This document shows positions 6,507 to 28,153 of a stretch of 64,000 nucleotides of DNA, in pieces (within the stretch, counting starts at the first letter, position 1; the number at the start of each line of letters is the position of its first letter). The notes beneath the pieces were generated by a model. That model saw only the letters and a list, made by a program, of their open reading frames with translations, did no database searches and was not told the origin of the DNA. The position numbers and the translations under genes were made by a program. Origin of the DNA: Fidelibacterota bacterium (GTDB lineage Bacteria > Fidelibacterota > UBA8477 > JABMPR01); contig JAERTH010000083.1 in NCBI GenBank assembly GCA_016844955.1, forward strand, positions 15,712 to 79,711. The letters run 5' to 3'.

Positions 6507-7952
6507 ATGGACAATGATCAGATACGGGTTTTACTCATTGAAGATGAGGAATATGATGTTCGCCGGATTCAGAGTACAATTTATCCATTCCGGGAACGAA
6601 TCAGTATCAAGGACATCGTGTCCACCGGTGAGGATGCACTCAATGCCGTTGATAAAAAGGGTCCCTTTGACGTAGCGATCCTGGATTATCAGATCTCTGG
6701 CGGACTCTATGGTGAACGGCTCATCAAGCGCATGAAGATTGCGGATCCCAGTCTGCAGATCATTGTGATTACAAAAATGACAATTAACCAGACCGACCTG
6801 CACTTTGCCAATCAGATGATGGAGAGTGGAGCCTACTGGTTTGGCACAAAATATCCTTCAGATATCGAAGATTTTATCTACCAGCCTACTGATTTCATAC
6901 TCACCATCATGAATGCTGCAGAAAAACGGAAACTGGAAGAGGACCGGCTAAAATCACAGAACCGGCTGGATCGTAAAATTGATCGAATCGTCCAGGAGAG
7001 ACCTCTGCTGGGCAATTCCCCGATCATTTTAAAGGTTAAAGAGCATATAGAGCGCTACGCAGCAACCAGTGCCAATGTTTTGATCTCTGGTGAATCAGGA
7101 TCTGGTAAAGAGCTCATTGCACGTAACATTCACTATCAATCCGCTCGTAAATACGAAAACTTTGTCACCGTTAATTGTGCCGCCATTCCGGATGAACTTA
7201 TTGAGAGCGAATTGTTCGGATTCGTGAAGGGCGCTTTTACCGGGGCCAAGGAAGATAAGCTGGGTTTATTTGAACAGGCCAACAGCGGAACCATCTTTCT
7301 GGATGAAATCTCTGAACTGCCCTATCAGGCACAAGCCAAACTGCTCCGTGTATTGGAAACGGGGGAGATGGATAAAATTGGCCGCAAGAAGAGCTACAAG
7401 GTGGATGTGCGGGTTATTTCCGCCACCAACAAGAACCTGAAAGATTTGATGAAACGGAATCATTTTCGCGAGGATCTCTATTATCGTCTCAATATCCTCA
7501 GAATTCAGGCACCCGCTGTGAGGGAACGCACTGAAGATATTAGACTTCTGATTGATTATTTTGTCGGTCACCATTGCCGTGATTTAAGTATCACTATCCC
7601 CAAAATCACTGATTCTGCCTGGAAAATACTGGAACTTTTTCACTGGCCTGGAAATGTGCGTCAGCTTAAAAATGTGGTGCAGCGAATGGTGATCTTATGT
7701 AATGATCGAATTACCAAAGATGTGGTTCATATGGCGCTTGATCTACAGGGTCAGGATTCCATATCATCTTTGGTAAACCCGGTTTTCTCAACCGAGAATA
7801 TCCTGCCCCTAAAAGATGTGGAACAGAGTTTTCGGCGTCAATATTTCGAGTTTGTCAGGCAGCACTGCAAAACCGACACTGAAGCCGCTGGAAAATTGGG
7901 TCTTGCCCCGCCAAATTTTCATCGGATGTGTAAGGAATTAGGTTTGAAATAG
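6507..7952 (+). CDS. Sigma-54-dependent response regulator (REC + AAA+ EBP + Fis-type HTH), NtrC family
   Basis: 481-aa ORF. REC domain 'VLLIEDEEYD...VAILDYQI'. Walker A 'GESGSGKE'. Sigma-54 contact motif 'GAFTGA'. 'FREDLYYRLNI'. C-terminal HTH 'AAGKLGLAPPNFHRMCKELGL'. Confidence 0.9.
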   Translation: MDNDQIRVLLIEDEEYDVRRIQSTIYPFRERISIKDIVSTGEDALNAVDKKGPFDVAILDYQISGGLYGERLIKRMKIADPSLQIIVITKMTINQTDLHFANQMMESGAYWFGTKYPSDIEDFIYQPTDFILTIMNAAEKRKLEEDRLKSQNRLDRKIDRIVQERPLLGNSPIILKVKEHIERYAATSANVLISGESGSGKELIARNIHYQSARKYENFVTVNCAAIPDELIESELFGFVKGAFTGAKEDKLGLFEQANSGTIFLDEISELPYQAQAKLLRVLETGEMDKIGRKKSYKVDVRVISATNKNLKDLMKRNHFREDLYYRLNILRIQAPAVRERTEDIRLLIDYFVGHHCRDLSITIPKITDSAWKILELFHWPGNVRQLKNVVQRMVILCNDRITKDVVHMALDLQGQDSISSLVNPVFSTENILPLKDVEQSFRRQYFEFVRQHCKTDTEAAGKLGLAPPNFHRMCKELGLK

Positions 7953-8278: not shown

Positions 8279-9886
8279 ATGAGTGGCCTGGATTATGTTG
8301 TTATAGTCCTCTACTTTATCATGGTTTTGGGGATAGGTGTTTACTTCTCCCGTAGAACTTCTGATAGCACCGAATACTTCCTGGCCGGAAGGAATGTCGG
8401 GTGGGTAGCCATCGGTGCGTCTCTCTTTGCGTCCAATATTTCCAGTGAACATTTTATAGGCCTGGCTGGAACAGGTTCCAGCAGTGGTCTTGCTGTAGGT
8501 CATTTTGAATGGTTGGCTGCCTTTATCGTCCTCTTCCTGGGCTGGGTTTTTGTCCCCTTCTACTTAAAATCCGGTGTTTTTACCATGCCCGAATTTCTGG
8601 AAAGACGATATGGGCGGTCCAGTCGCATGTATTTAACTTCCGTATCAATTGTAGCTTATGTCATCACAAAAATATCTGTCACCCTGTTCGCTGGTGGATT
8701 GCTCCTGAACAAAATTCTGGGCTGGGATATGATGACTTCAGCTATTGTACTCATTATAGTCACGGGGATATACACGATAGCTGGTGGTTTGAGTGCAGTT
8801 ATCTATACAGAATTGATTCAGTCCATCATCCTGATCGGTGGCGCTATAGTTTTGACCGTGCTTGGTCTCAACGAAGTAGGGGGCTTCACAGGGTTACAGG
8901 CAAAATTGCCACCAGAATTCTTTGAAATGTTCAAGGGTATGAATCATCCGGATTTCCCCTGGACCGGTATTATCTTTGGGGCACCTATTCTGGGAATATG
9001 GTACTGGTGCACGGATCAATTCATCGTACAGCGAGTACTCAGTGCCAAAAATATCAACCATGCCCGTTCAGGTGCCATCCTGGCTGGTTTTCTTAAGATA
9101 TTGCCCGTATTTATTCTGGTATTGCCCGGTTTGATCGCAGCTGCACTTTTTGGTACCACAGGGGATGAAGCCTATCCTACACTGGTTACCAGCTATCTCT
9201 TACCCTCTGGTTTAAAGGGCATCGTCATCGCCAGCCTGCTGGCAGCACTCATGTCTTCACTGGCCAGTGTGTTCAACAGTACATCTACCTTATTTACTAT
9301 TGATTTTTATAAAAACTTTCGACCCGACTCCTCCGAGGTTGAGCTGGTCCTGGTGGGCCGATTAGCTACAACAGTCATGGTGATCCTGGGTGTGCTTGCA
9401 GTACCCTTGATCACCATGCTGAGTAGCCAATTATTTGTCTATCTGCAAAGTGTGCAGGCCTATATAAGTCCTCCTATCGCTGCTGTATTCATTATGGGAA
9501 TTTTCTGGCACAGGGCCAATTCCAGGGGGGCAATATCTGCCCTGGGAGCCGGAGCTGTGCTGGGTGCTCTACGCTTTGTACTTGAAATCCTGGTAAAACA
9601 GGGTGTGTCATTAGGGATGTTTGAATGGTATGCCACCATGAATTTTCTCCATTTTGCAGTCTTTCTCTTCATTATTTCGGTTGGGATAGTCTATGTGGTC
9701 AGCCTGGCTACACCCAGACCCAATCAGCAACAGATCACTGGTTTAACAATGGCTACAGCATCCGAAATGCAGACGGATATGAGTCGTCGCATGGATGTTC
9801 AGGATCCACTTTGGAATAGAATTAACATTATTGCATCTATTGTATTGGTAGTAAGCATACTCATACTCTGGGTGAAATTTGCATAG
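8279..9886 (+). CDS. Sodium:solute symporter family (SSF/SGLT-like) sugar transporter
   Basis: 535-aa polytopic membrane ORF. SSF-type N-terminus 'YFLAGRNVGWVAIGASLFASNISSEHFIGLAG'. About 13-14 hydrophobic segments. Confidence 0.9.
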   Translation: MSGLDYVVIVLYFIMVLGIGVYFSRRTSDSTEYFLAGRNVGWVAIGASLFASNISSEHFIGLAGTGSSSGLAVGHFEWLAAFIVLFLGWVFVPFYLKSGVFTMPEFLERRYGRSSRMYLTSVSIVAYVITKISVTLFAGGLLLNKILGWDMMTSAIVLIIVTGIYTIAGGLSAVIYTELIQSIILIGGAIVLTVLGLNEVGGFTGLQAKLPPEFFEMFKGMNHPDFPWTGIIFGAPILGIWYWCTDQFIVQRVLSAKNINHARSGAILAGFLKILPVFILVLPGLIAAALFGTTGDEAYPTLVTSYLLPSGLKGIVIASLLAALMSSLASVFNSTSTLFTIDFYKNFRPDSSEVELVLVGRLATTVMVILGVLAVPLITMLSSQLFVYLQSVQAYISPPIAAVFIMGIFWHRANSRGAISALGAGAVLGALRFVLEILVKQGVSLGMFEWYATMNFLHFAVFLFIISVGIVYVVSLATPRPNQQQITGLTMATASEMQTDMSRRMDVQDPLWNRINIIASIVLVVSILILWVKFA

Positions 9887-9925: not shown

Positions 9926-12460
9926 ATGAAGACAATGTTACGCTTAACACTTGTTCTCACCCTTCTCGTAGTTATCGGACAGGCACAGGTCATCAATAAT
10001 TTTGATGCTGCTCCTGCTGACACCAACTATTGGGAATGGTACGAGCCAGTAACTGAAGGCGGGTTGGAAACCAATCCTGCTGGACATTATGCCATCAGCA
10101 CCGGTGCCGATCCTGAACTGGGTTGGATCGAAGTTAGCTATGTCACCGATATTGTACTGGAAGGTGATGGAGCTATGAAGGTAGATTATAGTATCCACAA
10201 CTCAGAAACCTGGGGTGGTTACTCCAAACTGCATCATTTTGAACCAGATACTCTAAGTTCTGTTACTTATGATTGGTCTCTTTATGACAGTTTGTCCTTC
10301 TCCTACTATAATGTTACACCACAGGACTCAACAGGTCGTGTGCATCTGAGACTCAATCTTGGAGATTATGGCGATATCGATGCACCTGACTATAGTGAAC
10401 TGGGTGAGTTCTGGTATTCTTTCCATTACATCTTGGATGAAGAACCAGGCTGGCACACCATCGAGATGGCACTAGAAAGTTCAGAATCCCAGAGTGGAAC
10501 TGCCTTTAACCATACAGGTTGGTCAGGAACCCCTGGAAACCTCGAGCTTGATACAGACAGAATCAAAAACTGGGCCTTTGAATTTTCCGTCAGTGGTAGT
10601 GGTGATGGCGATGTGGTCACAGGTAGTGTGATTTTTGATGATTTCAAACTGATTGCATCCAAGAACAGTCTTGAAAATGGCAGTTTTGAAACTGCCGATG
10701 CCAATGAAGATGACATGGGTTGGGGTTGGACACATGCTGGTGACGGCCAGGCTCATACAAACATTGTGATGGATGCTGACGTTGCCCGCACAGGTGACTA
10801 CTATGCTGAATTAGGTGTTGAGAATGGTTCAGCCTGGGGTGTTTTCTATACTGAGCAAACCATTCCTGCTTCACAGGGTGAAACCTGGGAATTGGGTGGA
10901 TACATTAAAGACATCTCCGAGACAGTAACCGGCGGAGCATTTGGTGGATATAAGATTGAAGCCAAGAATGATGCTGGAGACATTCTTTACACAACCGGTG
11001 ATGTACTGTTTGATATCACAACCGACTATCAAAAGTTTACTACCAGTGCAGTAATGCCTGAAAATACTACCAATGTAGCAGCCGTTCTGGTGGTGACCCG
11101 TTGGGATGGTTCCAATGTGAACTATGCTTTTGATGATATGTACCTCATGAGTGTTGGTGTGTTGGATCTTGAGCCACCTGTTGAAGTTGCCAATGTCAGC
11201 GCCATTGCTGGTACCAATTTCAACATGGTAACCTGGGATGAGAATGCTGGTGAAGAAGGCGAGACATATAACATTTATGCAAGTCGCTTCCCAATTACTG
11301 ACCTGAGTTCCAACAATGTTGATGTTGTTGCTTCTGGTCACCTTGAAGGTTCACCCACTGTTGTTCATTATCTCTATGCTCCTCTGAATGACGAAGTGCA
11401 GGAATTCTACTACGCCGTTGAATGTGTCGATGCATCAATGAATATTGGACCAGCCGGTGTTGCTGCAGCTACCTATACCAACACTGCTCTGGGTATTCCA
11501 ACTATTTCACTGGTTACACCAACCAACTTTGTTGCGGATGGATTTTTTGATGATTGGGCTGGCATCACACCTTTCCAGATTGGATTCACACCTGGATCAT
11601 GGGGCTATTCAAGTGTATGGCAAACTATAGATAATGATGAAGATTGTTCTGCATCCATCTACTTAGCCATGGATGATGAGTATCTCTATGTAGCCGCAGA
11701 TGTGCTGGATAACGTATACAATGGTTATCTAAATAGTGGCAACTGGTGGGATATGGATGCTTTACAGCTGTTTATAGGTCTATATAACCAACGTGGCGAG
11801 CGTCACAATGCATTGCTCCGTGGGGATGAACCAGATTATGGTTTAATTTTCGCTGACAGCAGCATTTTCCGTGACAATGGTGATCGTTACACACTTGCTG
11901 AAGATGATGATGGCATGTATTACTTTGAAGGTTTTAACCCCGATTATGTTATAGAAGCCATGATTCCTCTGGATTCTCTCGCTTCTGGTGGTGGTTTTAC
12001 TGATCAGGTCTATGCCCCCACAAATGGTGATCGCATTCTCATCGAGCCCATTCTTCATGACAATGATGGAACCTGGGAAGGAAATGTCCAGTCATCCTAT
12101 CTGAATGAAGATAATGCCTGGCAGACACCTGGCGTCTGGAACTACACCTTTGTTGGTGATATGGACGCAGTTGCCATCGATGACGTTGAGACTCCCTCTG
12201 CATATCGCCTGAACAACAATTATCCGAACCCCTTCAACCCAAGCACAGTTATTTCATATAAAATTGCAAACGCAGAACAGGTTCGCCTGAGTGTTTACAA
12301 TGTTCTTGGTCAGGAAGTTGCAGTTCTAGTGGATGAAGTTCAGAATGCTGGTGCGCATGAACTACAGTTCAATGCTGGAACATTGGCTTCAGGTATCTAT
12401 ATGTATAGATTAGAAGCTGGTGGCTATACAAGTACACAAAAAATGATCCTGATGAAATAG
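9926..12460 (+). CDS. Secreted non-catalytic carbohydrate-binding protein (CBM4_9-like + FN3-like + CBM9-like) with T9SS C-terminal sorting domain
   Basis: 844-aa ORF with RBS AAGGAGG and a signal peptide. CBM4_9-like 'ENGSFE...GYKIEAKN'. CBM9-like 'FFDDWAGITPF...YLYVAADVLDN...DALQLFIG'. CTD 'NNYPNPFNPSTVISYKI...GIYMYRLEAGGYTSTQKMILMK'. No catalytic motif recognised. Confidence 0.7.
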   Translation: MKTMLRLTLVLTLLVVIGQAQVINNFDAAPADTNYWEWYEPVTEGGLETNPAGHYAISTGADPELGWIEVSYVTDIVLEGDGAMKVDYSIHNSETWGGYSKLHHFEPDTLSSVTYDWSLYDSLSFSYYNVTPQDSTGRVHLRLNLGDYGDIDAPDYSELGEFWYSFHYILDEEPGWHTIEMALESSESQSGTAFNHTGWSGTPGNLELDTDRIKNWAFEFSVSGSGDGDVVTGSVIFDDFKLIASKNSLENGSFETADANEDDMGWGWTHAGDGQAHTNIVMDADVARTGDYYAELGVENGSAWGVFYTEQTIPASQGETWELGGYIKDISETVTGGAFGGYKIEAKNDAGDILYTTGDVLFDITTDYQKFTTSAVMPENTTNVAAVLVVTRWDGSNVNYAFDDMYLMSVGVLDLEPPVEVANVSAIAGTNFNMVTWDENAGEEGETYNIYASRFPITDLSSNNVDVVASGHLEGSPTVVHYLYAPLNDEVQEFYYAVECVDASMNIGPAGVAAATYTNTALGIPTISLVTPTNFVADGFFDDWAGITPFQIGFTPGSWGYSSVWQTIDNDEDCSASIYLAMDDEYLYVAADVLDNVYNGYLNSGNWWDMDALQLFIGLYNQRGERHNALLRGDEPDYGLIFADSSIFRDNGDRYTLAEDDDGMYYFEGFNPDYVIEAMIPLDSLASGGGFTDQVYAPTNGDRILIEPILHDNDGTWEGNVQSSYLNEDNAWQTPGVWNYTFVGDMDAVAIDDVETPSAYRLNNNYPNPFNPSTVISYKIANAEQVRLSVYNVLGQEVAVLVDEVQNAGAHELQFNAGTLASGIYMYRLEAGGYTSTQKMILMK

Positions 12461-12492
12461 GATCGTTGACGTTATAAGTAAATAAATATCAA

Positions 12493-12525
12493 GGGGGGGG
12501 AGATTAGACATTCCTCCCCCTTTTT
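12493..12525 (+). terminator. Rho-independent terminator/attenuator after the CBM protein gene
   Basis: Stem GGGGGAG (12496-12502) / CTCCCCC (14-20 of 125xx), 11-nt loop, followed by TTTTT (12521-12525). Only 17 nt separate it from the TonB-receptor start, so read-through is likely needed. Confidence 0.65.
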
Positions 12526-12542: not shown

Positions 12543-15245
12543 ATGATGAAATTTCACTTGAGTAAACTCCGCCGAACATTCCTGACATCAGGCTTGTTTA
12601 TGATTTTAAGTAGTGGTTTGCTGGCGCAGACGACTGGCAAGATCGCTGGGACAATCGTTGATGAGGGAACCGGCGAACCTTTACCCGGTGCCAATATTGT
12701 ACTGGTTGATACCCGTATGGGTGCAGCTGCAGATATTGAAGGACGCTATTATATTCTGAATATTCGCCCCGGTCACTATGACCTACGGGTAGATATGATT
12801 GGATATGCCCCGGTTATCGTGGAAAATATCCCTGTTTCAATCAACAGGACGGTTCCAGTTGATGTCAAAATGACACCTGCCACCATCAGTGGTGAGGTTG
12901 TTGTGGTTGAGGTAGAACGAGCAGCCATGAAAAAGGACCAGACCGGAACCATTAAGAATATTTCTTCCGAACAACTGGAAATCCTACCGGTTGAGAACCT
13001 GGGGGCCGTTGTAGCCATGCAGGCAGGTGTAGTCGAAGGCCACTTCCGCGGTGGACGTTCAACTGAAGTTTCATATATGATTGATGGTGTGGCTGTGGAT
13101 GAGACCTTTGGTGGTCAATATGCTGCAGTTGACATTGAACCAGAGACTATCAAGGATCTGGAAGTCATCACCGGTACATTTAATGCCGAATATGGCCGTG
13201 CCATGAGTGGTGTTGTAAACGCCGTGACAAAAGATGGTAGCAAAAATTTTGAAGGCTCATTCTATACTGGATTAGCCAACTATTTAACCACGAATGATAC
13301 TATTTTTCCCGGGATTGATGAAGCGGGAGTGAACCGAAATGAGGACTATAAGTTTCAATTGAGCGGTCCCCTGGTCGGTGACAAAGTTACTTTCTTTTTT
13401 AATACGCGTTATCAGAATAATCGCAACCACTTGAACGCCCTGAGCCGATTTAAAGTGACCGATCTCAGTGACTATACATCTGAGCAGCCATCGGAGTGGA
13501 TAACTGAGAATACTGGAGACAGCGTTTATGTCCCCATGAATGGTTCTGAGAATCGCTCATTTCTGGGCAAAATTGCAATGAATATTTTCAGTGGTGGCAA
13601 GGTATCGATTATGCACTCCATCAATAGGGACAGATGGGATGGATACGATCATGGTTATAAATACAATCCAGATGGTGTGGCCAGCACATACAGAGAAACT
13701 GATTTTACTGTCCTGCAGTTAAATCACATGCTTTCAAATAGCCTGTTCTATGAAACCAAATTATCTAAGATGGTTAACTACAACGGGTACTACATTTTTG
13801 AAAATGTAGCCGATTCAGGTTACGTTAATGATGTCTATTCCAATAATTATGGCCCTGGTCTGTTCACCGGAGGTCAGAATAAGGACCATAGCGAACGCTG
13901 GATGACCGATCTGGCTGCCAAGTTTGATCTGACCTGGCAGATGAATTCACACCACAACATTAAAACCGGTGTTAACTATGTAAAACATGACCTGACCAAT
14001 GAGTGGTATCAAATTCGAAATCTCTGGGAGAATACGGAATTTGAGTCAGAACGCTATACACCCGTAACCTATGGTGATAGCTCAGTCTATGCAGACGTGT
14101 ACACCGTCAATCCAGTTGACTTCTCGGCCTATATTCAGGATAAAATGGAATATGATGAGATGGTTATCAATTTTGGATTACGCTATGACTGGTTTGACCC
14201 TGCAACCGTCTATCCTACCAACCTTAGAAACCCTGCGAATCAGCTACAGTTTGAAAACGACTCAAGCCGAACTTCACAATATCCTGAAACGCCGACAACT
14301 TCACAAATCAGCCCTCGTATTGGACTGGCTTATCAATTAGGAAATAAGGCCATTCTCCATTTTAGCTATGGCCACTTTTTCCAGTTGCCGCCCATGTATG
14401 CCATGTACCAGAATCATTCCTTCCTGATTGCACCCAGTGATTACGCAACAACCAATGGAAACTCAAACCTGAAATCTGAAAAGACAGTGGCCTACGAAAT
14501 AGGTCTCTGGCAGGAAGTGGGTCCAGGGATGGGACTGGAAGTATCGCTTTTCTATAAAGACATCTACAATCTGTTGAGTACAAAAGTGATCAGTACTTAT
14601 AACCAGATTGAATATGGCATGTATACCAATAAGGACTATGGAAATGTCAGGGGATTGGAAGTCAAATTTGATGTTTTCCAGGCACCTCTAAACTTCTGGG
14701 TGAATTACACACTTCAATACACTCGCGGTAATGCAGATTCACCGAATCAGTCCTTTGACCGAGCCGGTTCCAACCAGGATCCTGTGAACAAGTTTATTCC
14801 TATGAGTTGGGATCAACGCCACACGCTGAATGGGACGCTGGGCTATATTGGTGACAATTATGGAGTTTCCATCACTGGATACTTTAACTCCGGTGCACCA
14901 TACACCTTCTCACCCCAGGGAGAGAGCGTGTTGGCCCGTGTGAATCTGGATCCCAACAATGATTATCGTCCCATTAGATATCATGCTGATATGACGGCCT
15001 ATTATCATCTGAAACTCATGGGTAAAACCAGTCTACGCTTTGATCTCTCCATTTACAACCTGTTTGATCGTCTTAACGAGAACTGGGTCAGTGGCGAGAC
15101 CGGCCGAGCCTATACTGCTATCGTAACTGATGCCGAACTATCTAATTTTAAGAGTGACTTTAGTGAATATCGTGAACTTTATCAAGATCCCAGCGCATAC
15201 AGCGCTCCTCGCCAGATCAAACTGGGCGTGGGAATCAATTTCTAG
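12543..15245 (+). CDS. TonB-dependent outer-membrane receptor with N-terminal CarboxypepD_reg domain (SusC-like architecture, no SusD partner)
   Basis: 900-aa ORF with a signal peptide. 'GKIAGTIVDEGTGEPLPGANIVL' (CarboxypepD_reg). Plug region 'ISSEQLEILPVENLGAVVAMQAGV'. 'TFNAEYGRAMSGVVN'. C-terminal barrel strand ending '...KLGVGINF'. Confidence 0.9.
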   Translation: MMKFHLSKLRRTFLTSGLFMILSSGLLAQTTGKIAGTIVDEGTGEPLPGANIVLVDTRMGAAADIEGRYYILNIRPGHYDLRVDMIGYAPVIVENIPVSINRTVPVDVKMTPATISGEVVVVEVERAAMKKDQTGTIKNISSEQLEILPVENLGAVVAMQAGVVEGHFRGGRSTEVSYMIDGVAVDETFGGQYAAVDIEPETIKDLEVITGTFNAEYGRAMSGVVNAVTKDGSKNFEGSFYTGLANYLTTNDTIFPGIDEAGVNRNEDYKFQLSGPLVGDKVTFFFNTRYQNNRNHLNALSRFKVTDLSDYTSEQPSEWITENTGDSVYVPMNGSENRSFLGKIAMNIFSGGKVSIMHSINRDRWDGYDHGYKYNPDGVASTYRETDFTVLQLNHMLSNSLFYETKLSKMVNYNGYYIFENVADSGYVNDVYSNNYGPGLFTGGQNKDHSERWMTDLAAKFDLTWQMNSHHNIKTGVNYVKHDLTNEWYQIRNLWENTEFESERYTPVTYGDSSVYADVYTVNPVDFSAYIQDKMEYDEMVINFGLRYDWFDPATVYPTNLRNPANQLQFENDSSRTSQYPETPTTSQISPRIGLAYQLGNKAILHFSYGHFFQLPPMYAMYQNHSFLIAPSDYATTNGNSNLKSEKTVAYEIGLWQEVGPGMGLEVSLFYKDIYNLLSTKVISTYNQIEYGMYTNKDYGNVRGLEVKFDVFQAPLNFWVNYTLQYTRGNADSPNQSFDRAGSNQDPVNKFIPMSWDQRHTLNGTLGYIGDNYGVSITGYFNSGAPYTFSPQGESVLARVNLDPNNDYRPIRYHADMTAYYHLKLMGKTSLRFDLSIYNLFDRLNENWVSGETGRAYTAIVTDAELSNFKSDFSEYRELYQDPSAYSAPRQIKLGVGINF

Positions 15246-15254
15246 GAGTATGAA

Positions 15255-18200
15255 ATGAGAATGAACCAAAAACTTCCCTTGTTTCTCATGCTCCTCATGG
15301 TGCTGGGACTCGTACAATTAAATGCCCAGGGACGTCCCTATGAAGGTCCCACGGATAATGCTGGAGATCCAGCCTTTAATCGTGAAGGGTATATGACCGG
15401 TAATAGAGTGTTGATGTATTTTCAAAATTCAACCGAACTTTCATCCTGGCAAAAGCCCAATGTGTCTCGCTGGCCAAACAACTCCAGCGGCACCAAAATG
15501 ACCGATGGTATTGGTCTGCTCATAGGAGCCAAGGTCTTCATCGAAGATAATGGTGCTCCCGTAGATTCCATCCCAATACAGGGTTTGCTGGGGGATGTTT
15601 TAAATCAGGACCACCACACTCTCTATTATCTCCAGACCAGTTATCGAGAGGAGATGGATCGGGCACTTGTGGGTGATGTAATCTGGGGCTTGTTTCCCGT
15701 CGAAGGTTACTCAAACCTGCTTAGCGATTATCCTGCCATGAGCCACCTTGAAGAATCCTGGCCTGAAGCTGGATGGCCCGCTCTGAATGGTGCCTTGAAA
15801 TGGCCCGGTGAGTGGAATGGTCGGTTCGGCCGAGGTGTCACATACGCGGATATGGAAAGTTTCTTTGTCGTCAATGATGCCCAGGATCAGGAGAATCTGG
15901 GATTTGAAGATGCCATAAAATATTATCCTAAACCAGGTCATTTGATTCAAAGTGATGCTACACAACAACCAGGTGCCCCATGGGGTGGATTAGGTATTCG
16001 TGTTGCTACCCGCGGTTTTCAGTGGAATAACCCACAGGCCCGTGATGCCATCTTCTGGGAATACAATATTGCCAACACCTCGGACTATGACCTGCTGGAA
16101 GTTGCCTTTGGTTACTGGGTGGACAATGCCATTGGTCACAGTCAGTCTGGTGGTGGCGGCTCCAGTGATGGTGATGATGAAAAAGGGTATTTTGACGATG
16201 AACTTGATATGGCCTATTCCTGGGATGTTTCTGGTCGTGGTGTAGGTAATCTTAAAACTGGGACCCTGGGATTTGCCTACCTTGAAAGCCCTGGTGTACC
16301 CGATGATTTCATTGATAATGATGGTGATGGACTTACGGACGAAAAACGTGACAATGAACCCATAGCCATGGTTGGTGCCTATGATGGTATCGACGATTTA
16401 GCTAAATTCCTGGAGTTTTACAAATTGAACGAAGCAGATCTCCGTCCCCATTGGGATGCAGATGAAGACCAGGATTGGGAAGATGGTGTGGATGCCAACG
16501 GTGACGGTATCTACCAGGTTTCCGAGTACTATGGTGATGATGTTGGTCTGGATGGTGTGGGACCTGGAGAATTGAATTATTATGGTCCTGACCAGGGAGA
16601 AGGGGATCATATGCCTTCGTTCCAGGAAGGGGTTGGATGTGAACCTAATTTCAATCTCACCGATGTGTCTGAATCAGATATGATTGGTTTAACTGCCTTT
16701 CAGATGTTTCCCGTACCATCACACTCGCAGTCAAATACCACCCTCTGGTTTAAAAATGATCAGGCTATGTGGAATCTGGTCTCCAGTGATACACTGGAAG
16801 AGTATACCACCAATGTTTCCAATCTGATTGAGGTCTTTGCCTCCGGTCCTTTTCCTCTGGCACAGGGCTTAACCGAGCGTATTTCCATGAGTGAGTTACA
16901 CTCATATGATGATATCGATGGACTTAACTCTGATGAGCACAGAGCTCCTGCCCTTTATGAGTTGAAGAAAATTGTCCAGGTCATCTATGAAAAGGATTAT
17001 CGTTTTGCACAACCTCCCAAGATGCCCACACTCACAGCCACCGCTGATGATGGTCGGGTAATTCTAACCTGGGATGATATTGCTGATAAGCGTACACGTG
17101 ATCCCTTTGTAGGTAATATTAATGATTTCGAGGGTTACAAAATCTATCGCTCCACTGATAAATTCCTATCTGATCCTGAGATTATTACTGATGGATTTGG
17201 TCAGCCCACTTTTAAAACGCCGATTTATCAATGTGATTTAAAAGATGACATTCAGGGATTTACAGATTTTGGTCTGTTGAATGGTACTGCCTATTATCTG
17301 GGGAGTGAAACGGGTTTGTCTCACCGTTATATCGATAACAATGTTCAGAATGGTCGGACTTATTATTATGCATTGGTTGCCTATGACTTTGGAGCGCCCG
17401 ATGTTGGTCCCGGTATATCACCCTCTGAAAACAATGCTGTCATTGAGTTAGATGAAGCTGAGAATGTTCGCTCCGTCGGCAAAAACGTTGCTATCATGGT
17501 CCCACGTCAACAAGCTGCAGGGTATATCCCACCTGAGATTGTTCAGGAAGAGAATGATATGATTATAGGTAGTGGTACTATCACACCGGAAATCCTATCA
17601 ATCGGGGCCCTTGCCGAAAATCATGAATACCTCGTGACCTTCGATGTGGATACCATCAAACAAATGGATGGTTATGACTACGGCTTGTTTTACTCTACAT
17701 CAGGGTTTTCGATCTGGGATGTGACAGATACATCACGTCTGGTCTATTCGGAAGACAGCAGCTCATACTCTGGTGAGAATATCTACCACGTTGATCGCGA
17801 TTCCCTGGATGTTGGCCTGGGTTACTATCCATTCTATACACTGAATAACACAGACGTAAGTACTGACATCTTTGATGGGCTTCAGCTCTCAATTGATCTT
17901 GGGACTCAGTACGCCAAATATAGCTATCCAAAATCAGGTTGGCTGCAGGGGAGTGGCCTCATCAATGTCACACCTACTGTCTTTGAGTCAAGAATGTTGG
18001 CCTGGGATTATGAGATTATTTTTACTGATAATGATTCTGCCTATGTTGGCAAGGCGCGAGGTGGCTCTCCCAAGGATTATGATGGGGTAACCATCCAGAA
18101 TCCCTTGTGGCGTCAGGCCTACCCATTCTATGTTCAGAATACCACCTTTACCGATACGCTGGGTCAATATGAACAGTTTGATATGGTGATCGATGATCTC

Positions 18201-18761
18201 AATCAGAATGGCGTCTATGACATCCTGGAAGATAAAGTTCTCGTGGGTGTTACCGACAGTCGATTACGCTGGAAGGGAACAGTTTTCACCATTGATTTTA
18301 AATTCGTGACTGAAAACACGCTCCCTCAACCAGATGATGTGTATCGCGTCGTTTTTGACCGACCTTTCTTCAATACAGATTCTATTCGCTTCTCAGTAGA
18401 GGCCACTGACGATCTGGATCTTGACTATCTGAGAACCAAGATGGATAGTATACAGGTTGTACCCAACCCATATGTGGTGACCAATATGATGGAATCAGCG
18501 GTGGCGAACCCTTTCTTGAATCAGAGAAGACAGATCATGTTCACACATCTTCCTTCAGAATGTACCATTCATATCTTCACAGTGAGTGGAACCCTGGTTG
18601 ACAAATTGATCGTTGAGAATGCAGACCCCCAAAATGGCATTGCCCATTGGGACATGCTGACTCGAGAGGGATTGGAGATTGCGGCAGGTATGTACCTTTA
18701 TCACGTTGAATCCACCCAGACGGGTGAAGTTAAAACCGGCAAATTTGCCGTGATCAAATAG
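15255..18761 (+). CDS. Large secreted protein of unknown function (Ca-binding TSP3/dockerin-like Asp repeats, FN3-like domain, variant FlgD-Ig/T9SS-like C-terminal domain)
   Basis: 1168-aa ORF starting 9 nt after the TBDT stop, with a signal peptide. 'DNDGDGLTDEKRDN' and 'DADEDQDWEDGVDANGDG'. FN3-like 'GRVILTWDDIAD...FEGYKIYRS'. The C-terminus 'VVPNPYVV...CTIHIFTVSGTLV...GMYLYHVESTQTGEVKTGKFAVIK' deviates from the 'YPNPFNP' CTD seen in other cargo in this window. Confidence 0.6.
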   Translation: MRMNQKLPLFLMLLMVLGLVQLNAQGRPYEGPTDNAGDPAFNREGYMTGNRVLMYFQNSTELSSWQKPNVSRWPNNSSGTKMTDGIGLLIGAKVFIEDNGAPVDSIPIQGLLGDVLNQDHHTLYYLQTSYREEMDRALVGDVIWGLFPVEGYSNLLSDYPAMSHLEESWPEAGWPALNGALKWPGEWNGRFGRGVTYADMESFFVVNDAQDQENLGFEDAIKYYPKPGHLIQSDATQQPGAPWGGLGIRVATRGFQWNNPQARDAIFWEYNIANTSDYDLLEVAFGYWVDNAIGHSQSGGGGSSDGDDEKGYFDDELDMAYSWDVSGRGVGNLKTGTLGFAYLESPGVPDDFIDNDGDGLTDEKRDNEPIAMVGAYDGIDDLAKFLEFYKLNEADLRPHWDADEDQDWEDGVDANGDGIYQVSEYYGDDVGLDGVGPGELNYYGPDQGEGDHMPSFQEGVGCEPNFNLTDVSESDMIGLTAFQMFPVPSHSQSNTTLWFKNDQAMWNLVSSDTLEEYTTNVSNLIEVFASGPFPLAQGLTERISMSELHSYDDIDGLNSDEHRAPALYELKKIVQVIYEKDYRFAQPPKMPTLTATADDGRVILTWDDIADKRTRDPFVGNINDFEGYKIYRSTDKFLSDPEIITDGFGQPTFKTPIYQCDLKDDIQGFTDFGLLNGTAYYLGSETGLSHRYIDNNVQNGRTYYYALVAYDFGAPDVGPGISPSENNAVIELDEAENVRSVGKNVAIMVPRQQAAGYIPPEIVQEENDMIIGSGTITPEILSIGALAENHEYLVTFDVDTIKQMDGYDYGLFYSTSGFSIWDVTDTSRLVYSEDSSSYSGENIYHVDRDSLDVGLGYYPFYTLNNTDVSTDIFDGLQLSIDLGTQYAKYSYPKSGWLQGSGLINVTPTVFESRMLAWDYEIIFTDNDSAYVGKARGGSPKDYDGVTIQNPLWRQAYPFYVQNTTFTDTLGQYEQFDMVIDDLNQNGVYDILEDKVLVGVTDSRLRWKGTVFTIDFKFVTENTLPQPDDVYRVVFDRPFFNTDSIRFSVEATDDLDLDYLRTKMDSIQVVPNPYVVTNMMESAVANPFLNQRRQIMFTHLPSECTIHIFTVSGTLVDKLIVENADPQNGIAHWDMLTREGLEIAAGMYLYHVESTQTGEVKTGKFAVIK

Positions 18762-18772
18762 GGAGGTGAGAG

Positions 18773-19825
18773 ATGAAAAAAACAATCGTATTTCTTAGTT
18801 GTATCCTCCTGGTGATCACAATGGTCTCAGCTGAAGAAATCAACCGTGTTGGATCCACCAGTGCCAGTTTTCTTGAAATAGGGATGGGTAGTGCGCCTTC
18901 AGCCATGGGTGAGGCATATGTGGCCATGAGTGGTGACCTGTCTTCAGTATACTGGAATCCTGCAGGGGTTGCCTATCTGGAAAAAAGTGCTTTCACCATG
19001 ATGTACCAACCCTGGCTGGTTGACATTAACACTCTCTTTGCCAGTGGTGCCGTGGTGGTACCTACTATTGGTACCATCGCTATTTCCATGACTCAGGTGG
19101 GTTATGGTGAGATGCTGGTAACCAATCTGGCAAATCAGGATGGAACTGGTGAATTTTTTACGGCGAATGATTTTGCTGTTGGACTTACCTACGCCAGAAA
19201 AATTGCAAATTGGTTTTCCTTTGGTGCCACTGCCAAAATGATCAACTCTCAGATCTGGCACGAGAGTGCCTCGGCATTTGCCATGGATCTTGGGGTCATC
19301 GTCAAAACTCAATTCTTTGCACCGGGAGGTGAAAAAGGAAAAGGGTTGGATATTGGCATGAGTATTTCCAATTATGGAACCCGAATGCAGTATGATGGTA
19401 TTGATCTAATTCAACCCATTGACATCTCAATCGATGAAACTGGTAACTATGGAGATGTAATCGGTCAGTACAGAACCAATGAGTGGGAATTACCCCTCAT
19501 GTTCAGAATTGGCTTATCCTATAGCCCGATTCAAACCAGTTTTCAGACGCTGACCCTGGCAGTGGATGCCCTCCATCCCAATAATAATGCTGAGTCTATC
19601 AACCTGGGTGGACAGTGGGCATTGCGCGTGGCCAATAGTGGGAAATTCTATATCCGCGGTGGCTACAAAGCATTGTTCATGAAAGAATCCCAGTTTGGTC
19701 TCACCGCCGGTGGTGGTGTCGAGCTCTTTATGATGGGCAATCGATCAGTAATAGTTGATTATGCATTCAAAGAAGCCGGAATAATGGGTCGCACCCATGC
19801 GTACACCCTTGGGCTGACCTTCTAA
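18773..19825 (+). CDS. PorV/PorQ-family (FadL-like) outer-membrane beta-barrel protein
   Basis: 350-aa ORF with a signal peptide. N-terminal motif 'GSTSASFLEIGMGSAPSAMGEAYVAMSGDLSSVYWNPAGVA' matches my recollection of the PorV/PorQ family signature. Alternating beta-strand pattern. Aromatic C-terminal residue '...YTLGLTF'. Confidence 0.6.
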   Translation: MKKTIVFLSCILLVITMVSAEEINRVGSTSASFLEIGMGSAPSAMGEAYVAMSGDLSSVYWNPAGVAYLEKSAFTMMYQPWLVDINTLFASGAVVVPTIGTIAISMTQVGYGEMLVTNLANQDGTGEFFTANDFAVGLTYARKIANWFSFGATAKMINSQIWHESASAFAMDLGVIVKTQFFAPGGEKGKGLDIGMSISNYGTRMQYDGIDLIQPIDISIDETGNYGDVIGQYRTNEWELPLMFRIGLSYSPIQTSFQTLTLAVDALHPNNNAESINLGGQWALRVANSGKFYIRGGYKALFMKESQFGLTAGGGVELFMMGNRSVIVDYAFKEAGIMGRTHAYTLGLTF

Positions 19826-19828
19826 ATA

Positions 19829-21337
19829 ATGAAACATCTTTCTCTAAAAGCCGTCCTGATTATAATATTCGGGGCGGCTTTGTTGCTTTTATCCACCTGT
19901 GACAAACAACCAGAATTTGCCGGTAATGTCCTGGCGAAGGTTGGTGATCGTGTAATTACCAGTGAAGATTTTATGCGGCGGGCAGAATACACCATCCGTC
20001 CGGATTTCTGTGCCGGTGAAAATTATATCCACCGCAAAATTGTCTTAAACAGCCTCATTGCTGAAAAATTATTAGCGCTGGAATCGCCCAACTCCCCACT
20101 CCTGAATAACCCCGAATTCACAGCTTACATGCAGGGTCGGCAGGAACAGGCCATGCGCAAATGGCTATATAAGACGCAAGCCATGGATCAGGTTGAGATC
20201 GACACCAGTGAACTTCGCAGTGCTTTGCGAAAATCCATCCGAACCTATAACCTGCAATACTTGAACTTGCCTGATAGTCAGGCACTTGATGGCTGGAAAC
20301 ATGCACGGGCTGATGGGTATGATTTCGAAATACTCGCCCGAACCCTCACCGGTGCAGATACGATCCCGACCCATGAGATGTCCTGGTTCGAACGTGGGGA
20401 TGAATTGATTCATGATTATGTCTTCCAGAACGATCATAAAAAGGGTGCCCTGCTGGAGCCTCTGGAACTGGAGGATGGCAGCTTTATGATCATTAAGGTT
20501 GCAGGCTGGGTCGACCGTCCAGTGGTAAGCGGTCTTCAGTACGAACAGCATTACCAAGATGTTCAGGATCGCGTATCTCAGAAAAAAGCAGATGCCATTT
20601 ATAAGGATTACGTCACCAACATTATGGCTGGAAAATCACTTGAGCTGAACAAACCAATTTTTAGAGCTTACGCAAAACAGGCCGCTGATATTTATTTGAA
20701 GTCTCCTGAGGAGAAGGACCAGCTACTCAATAGTGCCATCTGGAACACAGAAGAACAAATCTATACTGAATCTCTCTCAGGTCATGCAGAAATACCTGGT
20801 GAAGCCACCATATTTAGTGTGGATGGTGAAGCCTGGTCGGTGGACCGCTTTGAGTCAGAACTGGCACTCCATCCGCTGGTGTTCAGAAAACGTAATATGA
20901 GCCACCGGGAGTTTCCAGAACAATTGAAATATGCCATGGCTGATCTGATTCGTGATAGGCAATTGACCAACGAGGCGTATAAACTCGGTTATGACGAGAT
21001 TCCTAACGTTAGACAACTTAAAAATATGTGGCAGGATCACTACGTCAGTCGACAGACTCGCAATGAATATGTGAGGTCCGAAATGTTGGCCAGTAAAGAC
21101 AGCACACAACGTTCAGAAGTTGCGGTGATTGAGATGTATATGAATCCTCTCATCGATCATCTCCAGAATAAATATGCTGAGGTAATCAGAATCAATACCG
21201 ACCTGTTTGAGAGTCTTGAATTGACGACTGTACCCATGATGGTGAGCAGTCGAAATGTACCCTTTCCCCTGGTTGTGCCTGCCTTTCCCAGATTGACTAC
21301 TGACAATGTCCTGGACTATGGTGAGCGGCTTGAATAG
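19829..21337 (+). CDS. Lipoprotein of unknown function (weak SurA/PpiD N-terminal chaperone-like start)
   Basis: 502-aa ORF. Lipobox-like 'LLLLSTCDK'. 'VLAKVGDRVITSEDFMRRAEY' resembles the N-terminal segment of SurA/PpiD-type chaperones. No parvulin motif seen. Confidence 0.3.
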   Translation: MKHLSLKAVLIIIFGAALLLLSTCDKQPEFAGNVLAKVGDRVITSEDFMRRAEYTIRPDFCAGENYIHRKIVLNSLIAEKLLALESPNSPLLNNPEFTAYMQGRQEQAMRKWLYKTQAMDQVEIDTSELRSALRKSIRTYNLQYLNLPDSQALDGWKHARADGYDFEILARTLTGADTIPTHEMSWFERGDELIHDYVFQNDHKKGALLEPLELEDGSFMIIKVAGWVDRPVVSGLQYEQHYQDVQDRVSQKKADAIYKDYVTNIMAGKSLELNKPIFRAYAKQAADIYLKSPEEKDQLLNSAIWNTEEQIYTESLSGHAEIPGEATIFSVDGEAWSVDRFESELALHPLVFRKRNMSHREFPEQLKYAMADLIRDRQLTNEAYKLGYDEIPNVRQLKNMWQDHYVSRQTRNEYVRSEMLASKDSTQRSEVAVIEMYMNPLIDHLQNKYAEVIRINTDLFESLELTTVPMMVSSRNVPFPLVVPAFPRLTTDNVLDYGERLE

Positions 21338-23163: not shown

Positions 23164-24240
23164 ATGAAAAAAAATATATTCTACAAATCGCTCCTACTCA
23201 TACTTCTGGCAACATTTGTATCTGCCAAGGCTTATCGTGGAGCAGAGCTTCGCACCATAGATAGCTACCGTTATGGTCGCTTCGAGACCCGCATGAAATC
23301 AGCTCCAAATTCTGGAGTCGTATCCAGCATGTTCACCTATCACGAGTTGGGATCAGCCGGGGTTGAGGATTGGTGTGAGGTTGATATTGAATTTCTGGGT
23401 CGTTACACAGACAAGGTGCAATTCAATACCATCACCAATTGGGAAGAAAGCCATGAGCACCTCCATGAACTGGATTATGACCCCGCCACAGAATTCCACG
23501 TGTATGCTTTTGAATGGACCCCCAACTATGTAGCCTGGTTTGTAGATGGGGAAGAGGTATTCCGGCAAACCGGTGGGCATATTACCCTCATGGATCGGGC
23601 CGCCAAATTCATGATGAACATCTGGCCACCCAATTATCCTGACTGGGTCGGTAATTTCAATTCAGCCGATCTACCCAGCTATGCCATCTATGACTGGGCC
23701 CGCTACTATGCTTATGTACCAGGTACTGGCAACACGGGAACAGGCAATGACTTTATTCAACTCTGGCATGATGACTTTGAAAGTTGGAACACCAGCCGCT
23801 GGCAAAAGGCCACCCACACCTGGGACGGTAACAATTGCGACTTTATTCATGCCAATGCAGTCTTCCAGGGAGGTTTTTTCATTCTGTGTCTGACCACTCC
23901 CACTGCCACCGGTTACCGTGGACCGACCTTGCCCGTGGATAGCGAGCAGGGAGCCTTGCCCGAAAAGATTCATTTATCCCCGGCCTATCCCAATCCTTTT
24001 AACGGAACTACCAACTTCACTTTCGAACATCTCGAACCTGGATCTCTGACCATGGATATCATTGATACGCAAGGCCAAATCCTATCCAGCCGGGTATTTA
24101 ACAAATCTGCAGGTGGGTTTACCAGTTTGAGTTGGGATGGCAACAATGATCTGGGGCATGCCGTACCCAGCGGATCCTATATCTGTCGTGTGAGAGATAA
24201 AGATGGTGCCGTCAGTCGTAAACTACTGCTGCTAAAATGA
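23164..24240 (+). CDS. GH16 beta-1,3-1,4/1,3-glucanase (lichenase-like) + T9SS CTD
   Basis: 358-aa ORF with a signal peptide. 'YGRFETRMKS'. 'WCEVDIEFLGRYTDKVQFNTITNW' closely mirrors the Bacillus lichenase motif [22 protein letters not shown]. CTD 'AYPNPFNGTTNFTF...GSYICRVRD...RKLLLLK'. Confidence 0.85.
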   Translation: MKKNIFYKSLLLILLATFVSAKAYRGAELRTIDSYRYGRFETRMKSAPNSGVVSSMFTYHELGSAGVEDWCEVDIEFLGRYTDKVQFNTITNWEESHEHLHELDYDPATEFHVYAFEWTPNYVAWFVDGEEVFRQTGGHITLMDRAAKFMMNIWPPNYPDWVGNFNSADLPSYAIYDWARYYAYVPGTGNTGTGNDFIQLWHDDFESWNTSRWQKATHTWDGNNCDFIHANAVFQGGFFILCLTTPTATGYRGPTLPVDSEQGALPEKIHLSPAYPNPFNGTTNFTFEHLEPGSLTMDIIDTQGQILSSRVFNKSAGGFTSLSWDGNNDLGHAVPSGSYICRVRDKDGAVSRKLLLLK

Positions 24241-25046
24241 GTTTTCAGCGCATAGGCGCCGCTCACTTACTGCTCATGACTCTGAGCCTCATGTTGATTA
24301 TTCAATGTGAGGAAAACCCTGAACCAGAAGACGAAACCCCCAATCCTTATCAGCGTGAGGGTTGGACATTAACCTGGCATGATGAATTTAATGGGGATGT
24401 TGTTGATACCTCGAAATGGGTGATTGCTGATGGGTATTGGTCTCATAACGGGGAAGAACAATACTATGCACCGGATGATGTCTACCCGGAGGATGGGAAG
24501 CTACGTCTACGTTCTCAATATCGACCATACGGGGAGCAATCCTTCACTTCTGGTCATGTGCATTCCCACTATTACCAACGCTATGGTCGTATCGATATAA
24601 GTGCTCGACTACCAGGCACCAAGGGGATGTGGCCAGCGCTCTGGTTGCTACCCAAGAATCCAGGTTGGCCACCTGAGATAGACATTTTAGAACTACTTGG
24701 TCATGATCCAAACACCATTCATATGTCCGCACACTGGGGACCAGTGCCACATGGCGTTAAACCCTGGGATATAGAGCAGATTGCCACTGGCCATTTTACA
24801 GGACCAGATTTTACAGCAGATTTTCATCTTTTCAGCCTGGAATGGTATCCTGACAGTCTGAGATGGCTGGTAGATGATGTGGTCAGGTTTAAGAGTGAAA
24901 TTGGTATACCCCATGAGGAAATGTACTTGATCATGAATACAGCAATCGGTGGGTTTTGGCCTGGATCTCCAGACAATACCACCATTTTACCCCAATATCA
25001 TGATATAGAATATGTGAGAATTTATGAACAAGCTAAAGCAAATTAA
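24237..25046 (+). CDS. GH16 laminarinase-type endo-beta-1,3-glucanase, lipoprotein
   Basis: 269-aa ORF whose ATGA start overlaps the previous stop. 'GRIDISARLPGTKGMWPALWLLP' and catalytic 'WPPEIDILELLG' (GH16_3-like ExDxxE). Lipobox-like 'LIIQC'. No CTD. Confidence 0.85.
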   Translation: MSFQRIGAAHLLLMTLSLMLIIQCEENPEPEDETPNPYQREGWTLTWHDEFNGDVVDTSKWVIADGYWSHNGEEQYYAPDDVYPEDGKLRLRSQYRPYGEQSFTSGHVHSHYYQRYGRIDISARLPGTKGMWPALWLLPKNPGWPPEIDILELLGHDPNTIHMSAHWGPVPHGVKPWDIEQIATGHFTGPDFTADFHLFSLEWYPDSLRWLVDDVVRFKSEIGIPHEEMYLIMNTAIGGFWPGSPDNTTILPQYHDIEYVRIYEQAKAN

Positions 25047-28145: not shown

Positions 28146-28153
28146 GAAACAGC

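Follow-up and report, generated by a model that had tools for sequence, protein, structure and literature searches.

How glycans cross the outer membrane when a TonB-dependent transporter (TBDT) is not accompanied by SusD is the question raised by a 64,000-nt stretch of DNA from a Fidelibacterota bacterium (GCA_016844955.1, contig JAERTH010000083.1, positions 15,712 to 79,711), referred to here as the window and used as the reference for all positions. Between 12543 and 21337 it holds a block of four genes coding for a 900-aa TBDT, a secreted protein of 1168 aa from an unannotated family, a 350-aa outer-membrane barrel of the PorV/PorQ family and a 502-aa lipoprotein. This block is best explained as the outer-membrane core of a beta-glucan utilisation locus, of the laminarin or mixed-linkage glucan type, which is built to a plan unlike that of SusC/SusD. 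Closely spaced and co-diverging, the genes for the transporter, the 1168-aa protein and the barrel make up a single unit that is conserved across at least five lineages of the Fibrobacterota-Chlorobiota-Bacteroidota (FCB) group, where it is combined with varied carbohydrate-active enzymes (CAZymes), regulators and inner-membrane sugar transporters.

The four open reading frames (ORFs) are co-directional on the forward strand and are separated by gaps of 9, 11 and 3 nt. Re-reading the coordinates bears out the first-pass annotation of the window in its ORFs, their positions and their spacing, and both of the starts that it gave for the following glycoside hydrolase (GH) family 16 gene are seen in the sequence: one at 21306, which overlaps the stop of the 502-aa gene, and an internal Met at 21354, which lies 16 nt past that stop and is followed by a signal-peptide-like stretch. 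The annotation had also remarked that no SusD/RagB gene follows the receptor, and indeed a Pfam scan of 28 window proteins gives no SusD/RagB match. The window thus lacks the SusC/SusD pair of a strict (PULDB) polysaccharide utilisation locus (PUL), although CAZymes, a regulator and a transporter are present. Close homologues of the proteins bear the names of 'Candidatus Marinimicrobia/Neomarinimicrobiota' metagenome-assembled genomes (MAGs), which assigns the window to that phylum.

Eighty loci from distinct species were compared with the window, and the denominators given here are the loci that are informative for the feature in question. The loci are labelled Marinimicrobia, KSB1, Calditrichota, Ignavibacteria, Rhodothermales/Rubrivirga and other Bacteroidota, some of the MAG labels looking unreliable. 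In at least 67 of 76 loci the gene just before the 1168-aa gene is that of the TBDT, a recurrence which places the arrangement far beyond chance. Directly downstream, the PorV-like gene is seen in 59 of 75 loci when ORFs are called, and tblastn adds 8 loci in which it had been hidden behind an antisense ORF. Across the loci the median gaps are 18 nt between the first two genes and 14 nt between the second and third. Pairwise distances of the three proteins are strongly correlated (r = 0.96, 0.91 and 0.93), with a Mantel permutation p of 0.001 both for TBDT and 1168-aa protein and for 1168-aa and PorV-like protein. Among GTDB species genomes the 1168-aa family is found in at least 533 tblastn-confirmed stretches.

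The enzymes that flank this unit change from locus to locus. It stands beside GH16, GH3 and GH5 in some loci, beside GH130 with LacI and an ATP-binding cassette (ABC) sugar transporter in others, and elsewhere beside GH9, beside GH2/GH5, GH35/42 and GH31, beside GH97 with an alpha-galactosidase, or beside a GH94-like enzyme. The 1168-aa protein falls into subfamilies that follow the type of locus across phyla and not taxonomy, a grouping which, with the changing CAZymes, makes up the pattern by which a modular PUL core is defined. Conservation of the block next to CAZymes, which the first-pass annotation had put forward as a check in several phyla, thus holds in Marinimicrobia, Ignavibacteria and Calditrichota and extends to KSB1 and Rhodothermales.

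Several loci depart from the common layout. The order is permuted to TBDT, PorV-like barrel and big protein in loci L025, L030 and L040, small ORFs intervene between the big-protein and barrel genes in L033, and two big-protein genes precede the TBDT and barrel genes in L054. The trio is kept in these loci and its gene order is not obligatory. A KSB1 MAG (L016, 282-12263) carries three tandem paralogues of the 1168-aa protein, of 1170, 1157 and 1163 aa, which are followed by a single PorV-like gene. The full module is also present in a cultured organism, the thermophilic Ignavibacteria species Rosettibacter firmus (L089; GCA_036860695.1, JAYKGJ010000002.1 370703-393942), where the order is LacI, a 1218-aa protein with a C-terminal domain (CTD), TBDT, a family member of 1079 aa, PorV-like barrel, a protein of 489 aa, an ABC transporter for sugars and a pair of GH130 enzymes.

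The transporter has a signal peptide with predicted cleavage at LLA|QT, and consists of a CarbopepD_reg_2 domain (residues 34-122), a Plug (130-224) and a TonB_dep_Rec barrel (366-840) as delimited by Pfam; a TonB-box-like segment, GEVVVVEVE, sits between the N-terminal domain and the plug. This is the domain order of SusC/RagA, namely an N-terminal CarboxypepD_reg-type domain, TonB box, plug and 22-strand barrel. The first-pass annotation called the protein a SusC-like receptor, which is correct for the domain order and does not extend to family membership: against the SusC/RagA model TIGR04056 the protein scores 58 bits where the cutoff is 368.25, and the match is limited to its N-terminal 200 residues, with only positions 2-208 of the 981 in the model aligned. 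A sequence search of the PDB returns nothing at E<=1e-3. The position directly 3' of the transporter gene, which a SusD/RagB gene would occupy, is taken by the 1168-aa gene in the window, as it is in the related loci counted above. By these sequence criteria the 900-aa protein is classed as a TBDT outside the SusC family.

The 1168-aa protein has a signal peptide of the signal-peptidase-I type, with cleavage at about LVQLNA|QG, and this signal contains no lipobox Cys; the lipoprotein of the block is the product of its fourth gene, and the SusD-type lipoprotein that directly follows a SusC transporter is not seen. Pfam and NCBIfam find no domain in the whole protein, Pfam finds no firm domain when the sequence is searched in six pieces at E<=5, and a PDB search with the single sequence finds nothing; the isolated C-terminus gives a weak match to FlgD_ig (E=0.021). 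The homologues carry the name 'hypothetical protein', RefSeq WP_353680270.1 of Rosettibacter firmus among them. The family is large: with sequences clustered at 50% identity, 3390 cluster representatives match it at E<=1e-3 and 409 do so at E<=1e-30. In both the 1168-aa protein and the TBDT a Gln follows the predicted cleavage site, and hardly any sequence of the family alignment departs from it, which is reminiscent of the 'Q-rule' of N-terminal pyroglutamate in Bacteroidota.

An AlphaFold2 (AF2) model of the 1168-aa protein, built from a 66-sequence alignment, is confident (mean pLDDT 82.7, pTM 0.74) and almost wholly beta. The conservation profile divides the sequence into a conserved beta-rich body (residues 41-760), a faster-evolving beta region (761-1040) and a conserved C-terminal zone (1081-1168). 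The body includes an Asp-rich segment at about 350-480, which is modelled as well-predicted loops without regular secondary structure, and among its many invariant acidic and aromatic residues are E132, E201, D208, D290, D318, E344, W73, W174, W187 and W257. The first-pass annotation had described Ca-binding repeats and a fibronectin type III (FN3) domain; the motifs DNDGDGLTDE, DDVGLDGVG and DFEGYKIYRS...YYYALVAYD and the secondary structure of the AF2 model agree with this, while no domain model supports it in Pfam, even for the protein in pieces. The faster-evolving region was considered as a substrate-binding module, a candidate which is rejected, as its sequence identity between the two GH16-linked subfamilies (0.21) equals that between GH16- and GH130-linked ones (0.20).

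The C-terminus, from about residue 1060 to 1168, resembles the CTDs that direct proteins to a type IX secretion system (T9SS). Aligned by hhalign with the CTDs of the neighbouring enzymes, the C-termini of the family match at 96.7% probability (E=3.3e-10, 65 columns), in agreement with the CTD-like end reported earlier, and the CTD of PorU is the sole PDB sequence match of the family profile (E=0.017). The AF2 model likewise has PorZ (E=1.8e-6) and PorU (E=2.3e-5) as its top Foldseek matches. The TM-scores of these are 0.07-0.12, so that the overlap is only the size of a CTD, and the 1168-aa protein is therefore rejected as an orthologue of PorZ or PorU. Structures of GH116, GH94 and exo-arabinanase enzymes are matched with a Foldseek probability of ~0.99 and a low TM-score; since the model has few helices, these matches may be attributed to the N-terminal beta-sandwich domains of the enzymes, which is a lead and not a test. 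The check for a SusD-like fold suggested by the first-pass annotation is negative: the alpha-helical tetratricopeptide repeat (TPR) fold of SusD does not occur in this nearly all-beta model, and there is no SusD among the 50 Foldseek PDB matches listed.

The 350-aa barrel had been assigned to the PorV/PorQ family, and it matches the family model NF033709 over its full length (residues 29-350) with 207.4 bits against a cutoff of 90. It also matches PF19572 PorV (E=7e-11) and the PorV of F. johnsoniae (PDB 6h3i_F, E=8e-16). The scores for the individual members of the family are all below their equivalog cutoffs, at 98 versus 250 bits for PorV (NF033710), 90 versus 220 for PorQ (NF033711) and 66 versus 325 for PorV2 (NF052325). 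On these profile scores the barrel is a distinct member of the family that is neither PorV, PorQ nor PorV2, and it is proposed to be the cognate anchor of the 1168-aa protein.

The 502-aa protein has the lipobox LLLLSTC and is thus a lipoprotein as first annotated; a function as a surface glycan binder is not borne out, as its family matches SurA_N, parvulin and PrsA instead. The window protein itself scores 18.4 bits with a SurA-like N-terminal model, below the cutoff of 27.2. Among 38 homologues, Pfam (E<=0.01) finds SurA_N_2 in 21 and SurA_N_3 in 19, and the parvulin model Rotamase_2 is found in 8. The family profile aligns across the parvulin domain of PrsA (4wo7, E=4e-6), the peptidyl-prolyl isomerase (PPIase) HP_0175 is a weak match of the protein (E=0.05), one NCBI record names a homologue 'peptidylprolyl isomerase', and in the distant locus L083 the same position is occupied by a protein with SurA_N and two parvulin domains, the latter at 80 bits. 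The search for a hidden SusD finds no SusD/RagB Pfam match in the 502-aa protein or in any of the 38 homologues. An AF2 model from the single sequence has a pLDDT of 34.5, and the classification rests on the hidden Markov model (HMM) evidence, by which the lipoprotein is most likely a chaperone of the SurA/PpiD/PrsA type, whose N-terminus is SurA_N-like and whose middle is a PPIase domain of degenerate, parvulin-like character. A SurA-like gene is present in 34 of the 59 loci with enough downstream sequence, mostly right after the barrel gene, and is a frequent member of the block and not a universal one.

The genes around the block are collected in the table below together with its own four. 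A putative sensor/regulator trio, as judged from Pfam domains, precedes the gene of a sodium:solute symporter (SSF), which is likely to be the inner-membrane sugar importer of the locus and is syntenic in many related loci. The order histidine kinase, response regulator, SSF, CBM9-CTD protein and TBDT recurs in L001, L009, L010, L015 and L072. In 43 of 57 loci the gene directly upstream of the TBDT gene encodes a CTD, with homology beyond the CTD in 18 of these, so this T9SS-CTD/CBM9 gene is commonly part of the conserved unit. With its family 9 carbohydrate-binding module (CBM), the upstream protein appears a better candidate for the surface glycan-binding role than the 502-aa lipoprotein. 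The same GH16/GH5 block follows the module in L001 and L004-L006, and the GH3 gene recurs in related loci. At least eight window proteins carry canonical CTDs, and a T9SS is therefore expected in the source organism.

Features of the window in and around the four-gene outer-membrane block (block first, then neighbours in order of position)
Feature	Position	Strand	Basis
TonB-dependent transporter (TBDT), 900 aa	12543..15245	+	Pfam: CarboxypepD_reg, Plug, TonB-dependent-receptor barrel
1168-aa secreted protein, unannotated family	15255..18761	+	Signal peptide, AF2 model, CTD homology
PorV/PorQ-family outer-membrane barrel, 350 aa	18773..19825	+	NF033709 match
502-aa lipoprotein, most likely SurA/PpiD/PrsA chaperone type	19829..21337	+	Lipobox, family HMM matches
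GH2_C-like TIM-barrel protein	138-1382	-	Pfam; divergent, upstream of regulators
GH3 beta-glucosidase-type enzyme	1441-3288	-	Pfam; divergent, upstream of regulators
Periplasmic solute-binding-like protein	3670-5031	+	Pfam SBP_bac_1/8
Histidine kinase	5028-6503	+	Pfam HATPase_c
Sigma-54-dependent response regulator	6507-7952	+	Pfam Response_reg + Sigma54_activat
Sodium:solute symporter (SSF)	8279..9886	+	PF00474 E=6e-93
T9SS cargo, 844 aa, CBM9-like module + type-A CTD	9926..12460	+	CBM9_1 E=1e-7, Por_Secre_tail E=1e-10
GC-rich (G8/C-rich) hairpin + T-run, terminator- or attenuator-like	12491..12525	+	Read from sequence; between CBM9-CTD and TBDT genes
GH16 + malectin + CTD	21306/21354-23156	+	Pfam, NCBIfam
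GH16 + CTD	23164-24240	+	Pfam, NCBIfam
GH16 without CTD	24237-25046	+	Pfam, NCBIfam
GH5 + CBM6 + CTD	25024-26994	+	Pfam, NCBIfam

The hairpin between the CBM9-CTD and TBDT genes has a calculated RNA folding energy of -21.8 kcal/mol (z=-2.2) and is kept in L001, a relative of 80% identity, at about 7230-7265. It may be a terminator or an attenuator that sets the expression of the upstream genes apart from that of the four-gene block. An Rfam scan of the window finds no RNA family. The sigma-54 pattern TGGCAC-N5-TTGCW, with up to two mismatches, occurs 42 times where 37 are expected and in none of the relevant intergenic regions, and scans for sigma-70 promoters and terminators do not rise above the shuffled background.

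Past the GH block, at 27099-29616, stand three genes, for a 348-aa protein in which no domain is firm, for a protein with a VTC domain and for a DUF4956 protein. The VTC/DUF4956 pair looks polyphosphate-related, and the three genes, which come after the GH enzymes in L001 as well and probably do so in L010, may belong to the locus. Very large surface proteins are clustered further downstream. Giant T9SS cargo proteins of 2178 aa (36530-43066) and 2227 aa (49035-55718) have Laminin_G_3, CarboxypepD_reg-like and immunoglobulin-like domains and a CTD, and a third very large ORF (58689-64000) is open for at least 1770 codons and leaves the end of the window. The C-terminus of a 435-aa protein (47780-49087) matches the gp53-like C-terminal domain of phage tail fibres (E=1e-16), and the ORF of this protein runs into the start of the 2227-aa ORF.

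What the 1168-aa protein and the barrel contribute to such a transporter is, on balance, probably an extracellular partner on its own membrane anchor: exported by the T9SS, the 1168-aa protein would be held on the dedicated PorV-like barrel by a retained CTD and act as the surface partner of the TBDT, in which role it would functionally replace SusD. It is proposed that Sec takes the protein across the inner membrane and that its folding occurs in the periplasm, perhaps with help from the SurA-like lipoprotein, which may assist in the folding or delivery of this large cargo or of the barrels. The protein would then be exported by the T9SS through a variant type-A CTD. This CTD would stay uncleaved on the barrel encoded next to it, which would leave the protein tethered at the cell surface. 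Anchoring of this kind is proposed because there are precedents, in that PorU and PorZ retain CTDs bound to PorV and PorQ, respectively, and genes for cargo with type-B CTDs cluster with those of cognate PorP/SprF barrels (PMC10202324). T9SS-displayed GH16 and GH5 enzymes would produce oligosaccharides and the CBM9 protein would capture glycan. The conserved 720-residue body may dock on or beside the TBDT as a lid or scaffold and pass oligosaccharides on. TonB-energised import would be followed by periplasmic trimming by GH3 and the GH16 enzyme without a CTD, and by uptake through the SSF symporter. The SusD-like way in which the protein evolves, with a conserved scaffold that diverges together with the transporter and is indifferent to substrate, favours the role of partner over that of a mere accessory binder.

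A number of observations weigh against this proposal. The canonical CTD models PF18962 and TIGR04183 stay below threshold on the 1168-aa protein, with no Por_Secre_tail match at E<=0.01, its CTD has an insertion after the PNPY motif, and its structural similarity to PorZ and PorU is limited to the CTD-sized piece. The faster-evolving region 761-1040 does not follow substrate class, being 0.21 identical between two independent GH16-linked subfamilies and 0.20 identical between GH16- and GH130-linked ones. The correlated distances of transporter, 1168-aa protein and barrel can also reflect simple co-inheritance. Strict 1:1 pairing of cargo and barrel is not universal, given that one barrel accompanies three big paralogues in L016 and two in L054 and L068; one PorV-like barrel may serve several big cargo proteins. 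Finally, as the hairpin before the TBDT gene is conserved, the whole locus need not be one transcript.

A different function for the same two proteins is that of a locus-dedicated T9SS sorting or attachment pair like PorZ-PorQ, which would tether CTD enzymes and CBM proteins around the transporter with no role as lid or glycan binder. This is unlikely, although the 1168-aa protein has its best matches, both in structure and in sequence, in PorZ and PorU, the barrel is a PorV/PorQ-family member, canonical CTD cargo is encoded beside the module in nearly every locus, and indifference of the conserved body to substrate class is what a general sorting factor would show. However, only the CTD resembles PorZ and PorU, and with few helices in the AF2 model a PorU-type protease fold looks unlikely, no direct search for a protease fold or PorZ-type propellers having been made. 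A sorting pair would also have no need to co-diverge with the TBDT and to follow it directly in ~90% of loci.

The many invariant acidic and aromatic residues of the conserved body, and the Foldseek matches to GH116, GH94 and exo-arabinanase structures, would also suit an enzyme of a new family that processes or debranches glycans at the mouth of the transporter, for example, with the barrel serving only as its anchor. Most of the invariant Asp residues lie in Ca-binding-type DxDxDG loops, however, and the glycoside hydrolase structures are covered only in small part (TMt ~0.2) with no sign of a catalytic domain. In addition, the same body accompanies enzymes for beta-glucan, mannan, cellulose and alpha-galactosides, which argues against a substrate-specific catalytic role and leaves the surface enzyme quite improbable.

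It is less probable still that the module is a general outer-membrane device, for the uptake of non-carbohydrates or for envelope biogenesis, which is next to CAZymes incidentally. A few loci have no recognisable CAZyme in their 10-kb flanks, such as L018 with a cytochrome c biogenesis gene upstream, and a SurA-like chaperone and a FadL/PorV-type barrel also occur in the machinery for beta-barrel assembly (BAM) of Bacteroidota (PMC12578637, PMC12611786). Yet in most annotated loci glycoside hydrolases, sugar regulators (LacI, or a sigma-54 response regulator with a solute-binding sensor) and sugar transporters lie on the same strand directly beside the module, and a plug and a TonB-box-like segment are present in the transporter. 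An ordinary SusC/SusD PUL, with a SusD hidden by divergence within the 1168-aa or the 502-aa protein, would fit the SusC-type N-terminal domain order of the TBDT and the SusD-like size of the 502-aa protein, a helical lipoprotein by low-confidence secondary structure, but is contradicted and rejected on the all-beta model of the 1168-aa protein with no SusD among its listed matches, the SurA_N, parvulin and PrsA matches of the 502-aa family, the lack of any SusD/RagB match in the window proteins and the 38 homologues, and the failure of the TBDT against TIGR04056.

The surface-partner arrangement is reminiscent of SusC/SusD (RagA/RagB) in its plan. Both have a TBDT with an N-terminal CarboxypepD_reg-type domain whose gene is followed by that of a large extracytoplasmic partner; in both the pair co-diverges, and one core is reused with many sets of CAZymes, a regulator and an inner-membrane sugar transporter. 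Unlike SusC, the transporter of the module does not score as a SusC/RagA protein (58 versus 368 bits), and unlike SusD, which is a helical TPR lipoprotein of ~550 aa, the partner is an all-beta protein of 1168 aa that appears to be of the Sec/T9SS type. The barrel and, often, the SurA-like chaperone are additional core members, and the surface enzymes of the module carry T9SS CTDs where those of SusCD PULs carry lipid anchors. The suggestion of the first-pass annotation that the block may be an alternative glycan-capture complex is partly supported, and the module is classed as a TBDT-centred glycan utilisation locus in which a T9SS-linked core stands in for SusCD.

The pairing of cargo and barrel has parallels in PorZ-PorQ, PorU-PorV and type-B cargo with PorP/SprF, where the gene of a PorV-family barrel has beside it that of a large secreted protein ending in a beta-sandwich domain of the T9SS type (PMC10202324). 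The module differs from PorZ-PorQ and PorU-PorV in that its barrel is below the PorV, PorQ and PorV2 cutoffs and its cargo is barely similar outside the CTD. The pair is further set apart from all three systems by its position in a nutrient-uptake operon with a TBDT, which to our knowledge has not been reported for any of them.

Other glycan loci without SusD are known. The atypical SusD-less PUL chu_1276-chu_1280 of Cytophaga hutchinsonii is, like the module, a CAZyme-linked outer-membrane cluster of an FCB bacterium, with a TBDT-like barrel and, in addition, other outer-membrane and glycan-binding proteins. However, CHU_1278 and CHU_1279 are small (CHU_1279 has 375 aa) tandems of CBMs resembling the surface glycan-binding protein SGBP-B, and neither a PorV-family barrel, a member of the 1168-aa family nor a SurA-like gene is reported there (PMC12016534). 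The carbohydrate utilisation loci with a TBDT (CUT loci) of Proteobacteria also place the transporter among glycoside hydrolases, together with a regulator and a transporter of the inner membrane, in the absence of SusD, whereas their transporters act alone and no conserved surface partner, PorV-like barrel or T9SS is known for them (PMC1790865). In the BAM complex of Bacteroidota a barrel holds a large surface protein, as is proposed for the module: BamG, a 14-stranded FadL/PorV-type barrel, holds BamH by its extracellular loops, and this machinery also has a PPIase-fold protein and Ca-structured loop domains (PMC12578637, PMC12611786). The function of BamG-BamH is the assembly of outer-membrane proteins and the families are different, so the likeness is an architectural analogy only. 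A full-text search of the literature finds no description of the module, though coverage of subscription journals is poor and a prior description is therefore possible.

On a broader scale, it is conceivable, as a more tentative proposal, that FCB branches outside the Bacteroidia (Marinimicrobia, KSB1, Calditrichota, Ignavibacteria and Rhodothermia/Balneolia) use an undescribed T9SS-dependent 'utilisome' as a general platform for polysaccharide import. This would consist of a non-SusC TBDT, a ~125-kDa partner of a new family held by an uncleaved CTD on a dedicated PorV-like barrel, and a dedicated SurA-like chaperone, and would be an analogue of SusCD of independent origin in which type IX secretion replaces the export of surface lipoproteins.

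SusC/SusD pairs are the marker by which PULs are found and glycan niches are inferred from genomes and metagenomes. Prediction on this basis misses loci built on the core of TBDT, 1168-aa protein and PorV-like barrel, which occurs in hundreds of species-level genomes, including those of the Marinimicrobia, a group that is dominant in the dark ocean and in oxygen-minimum zones. The hypothesis is directly testable in the cultured Rosettibacter firmus, which carries the module. If the module is a working glycan importer, the combination of a TBDT, a member of the 1168-aa family and a PorV-like barrel would be a simple genomic marker of carbohydrate use in these phyla, and a role would be assigned to a large family of 'hypothetical proteins', with its 409 cluster representatives at the stricter threshold. 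The reach of type IX secretion and of PorV-family barrels would then extend from secretion and attachment to the uptake of nutrients.

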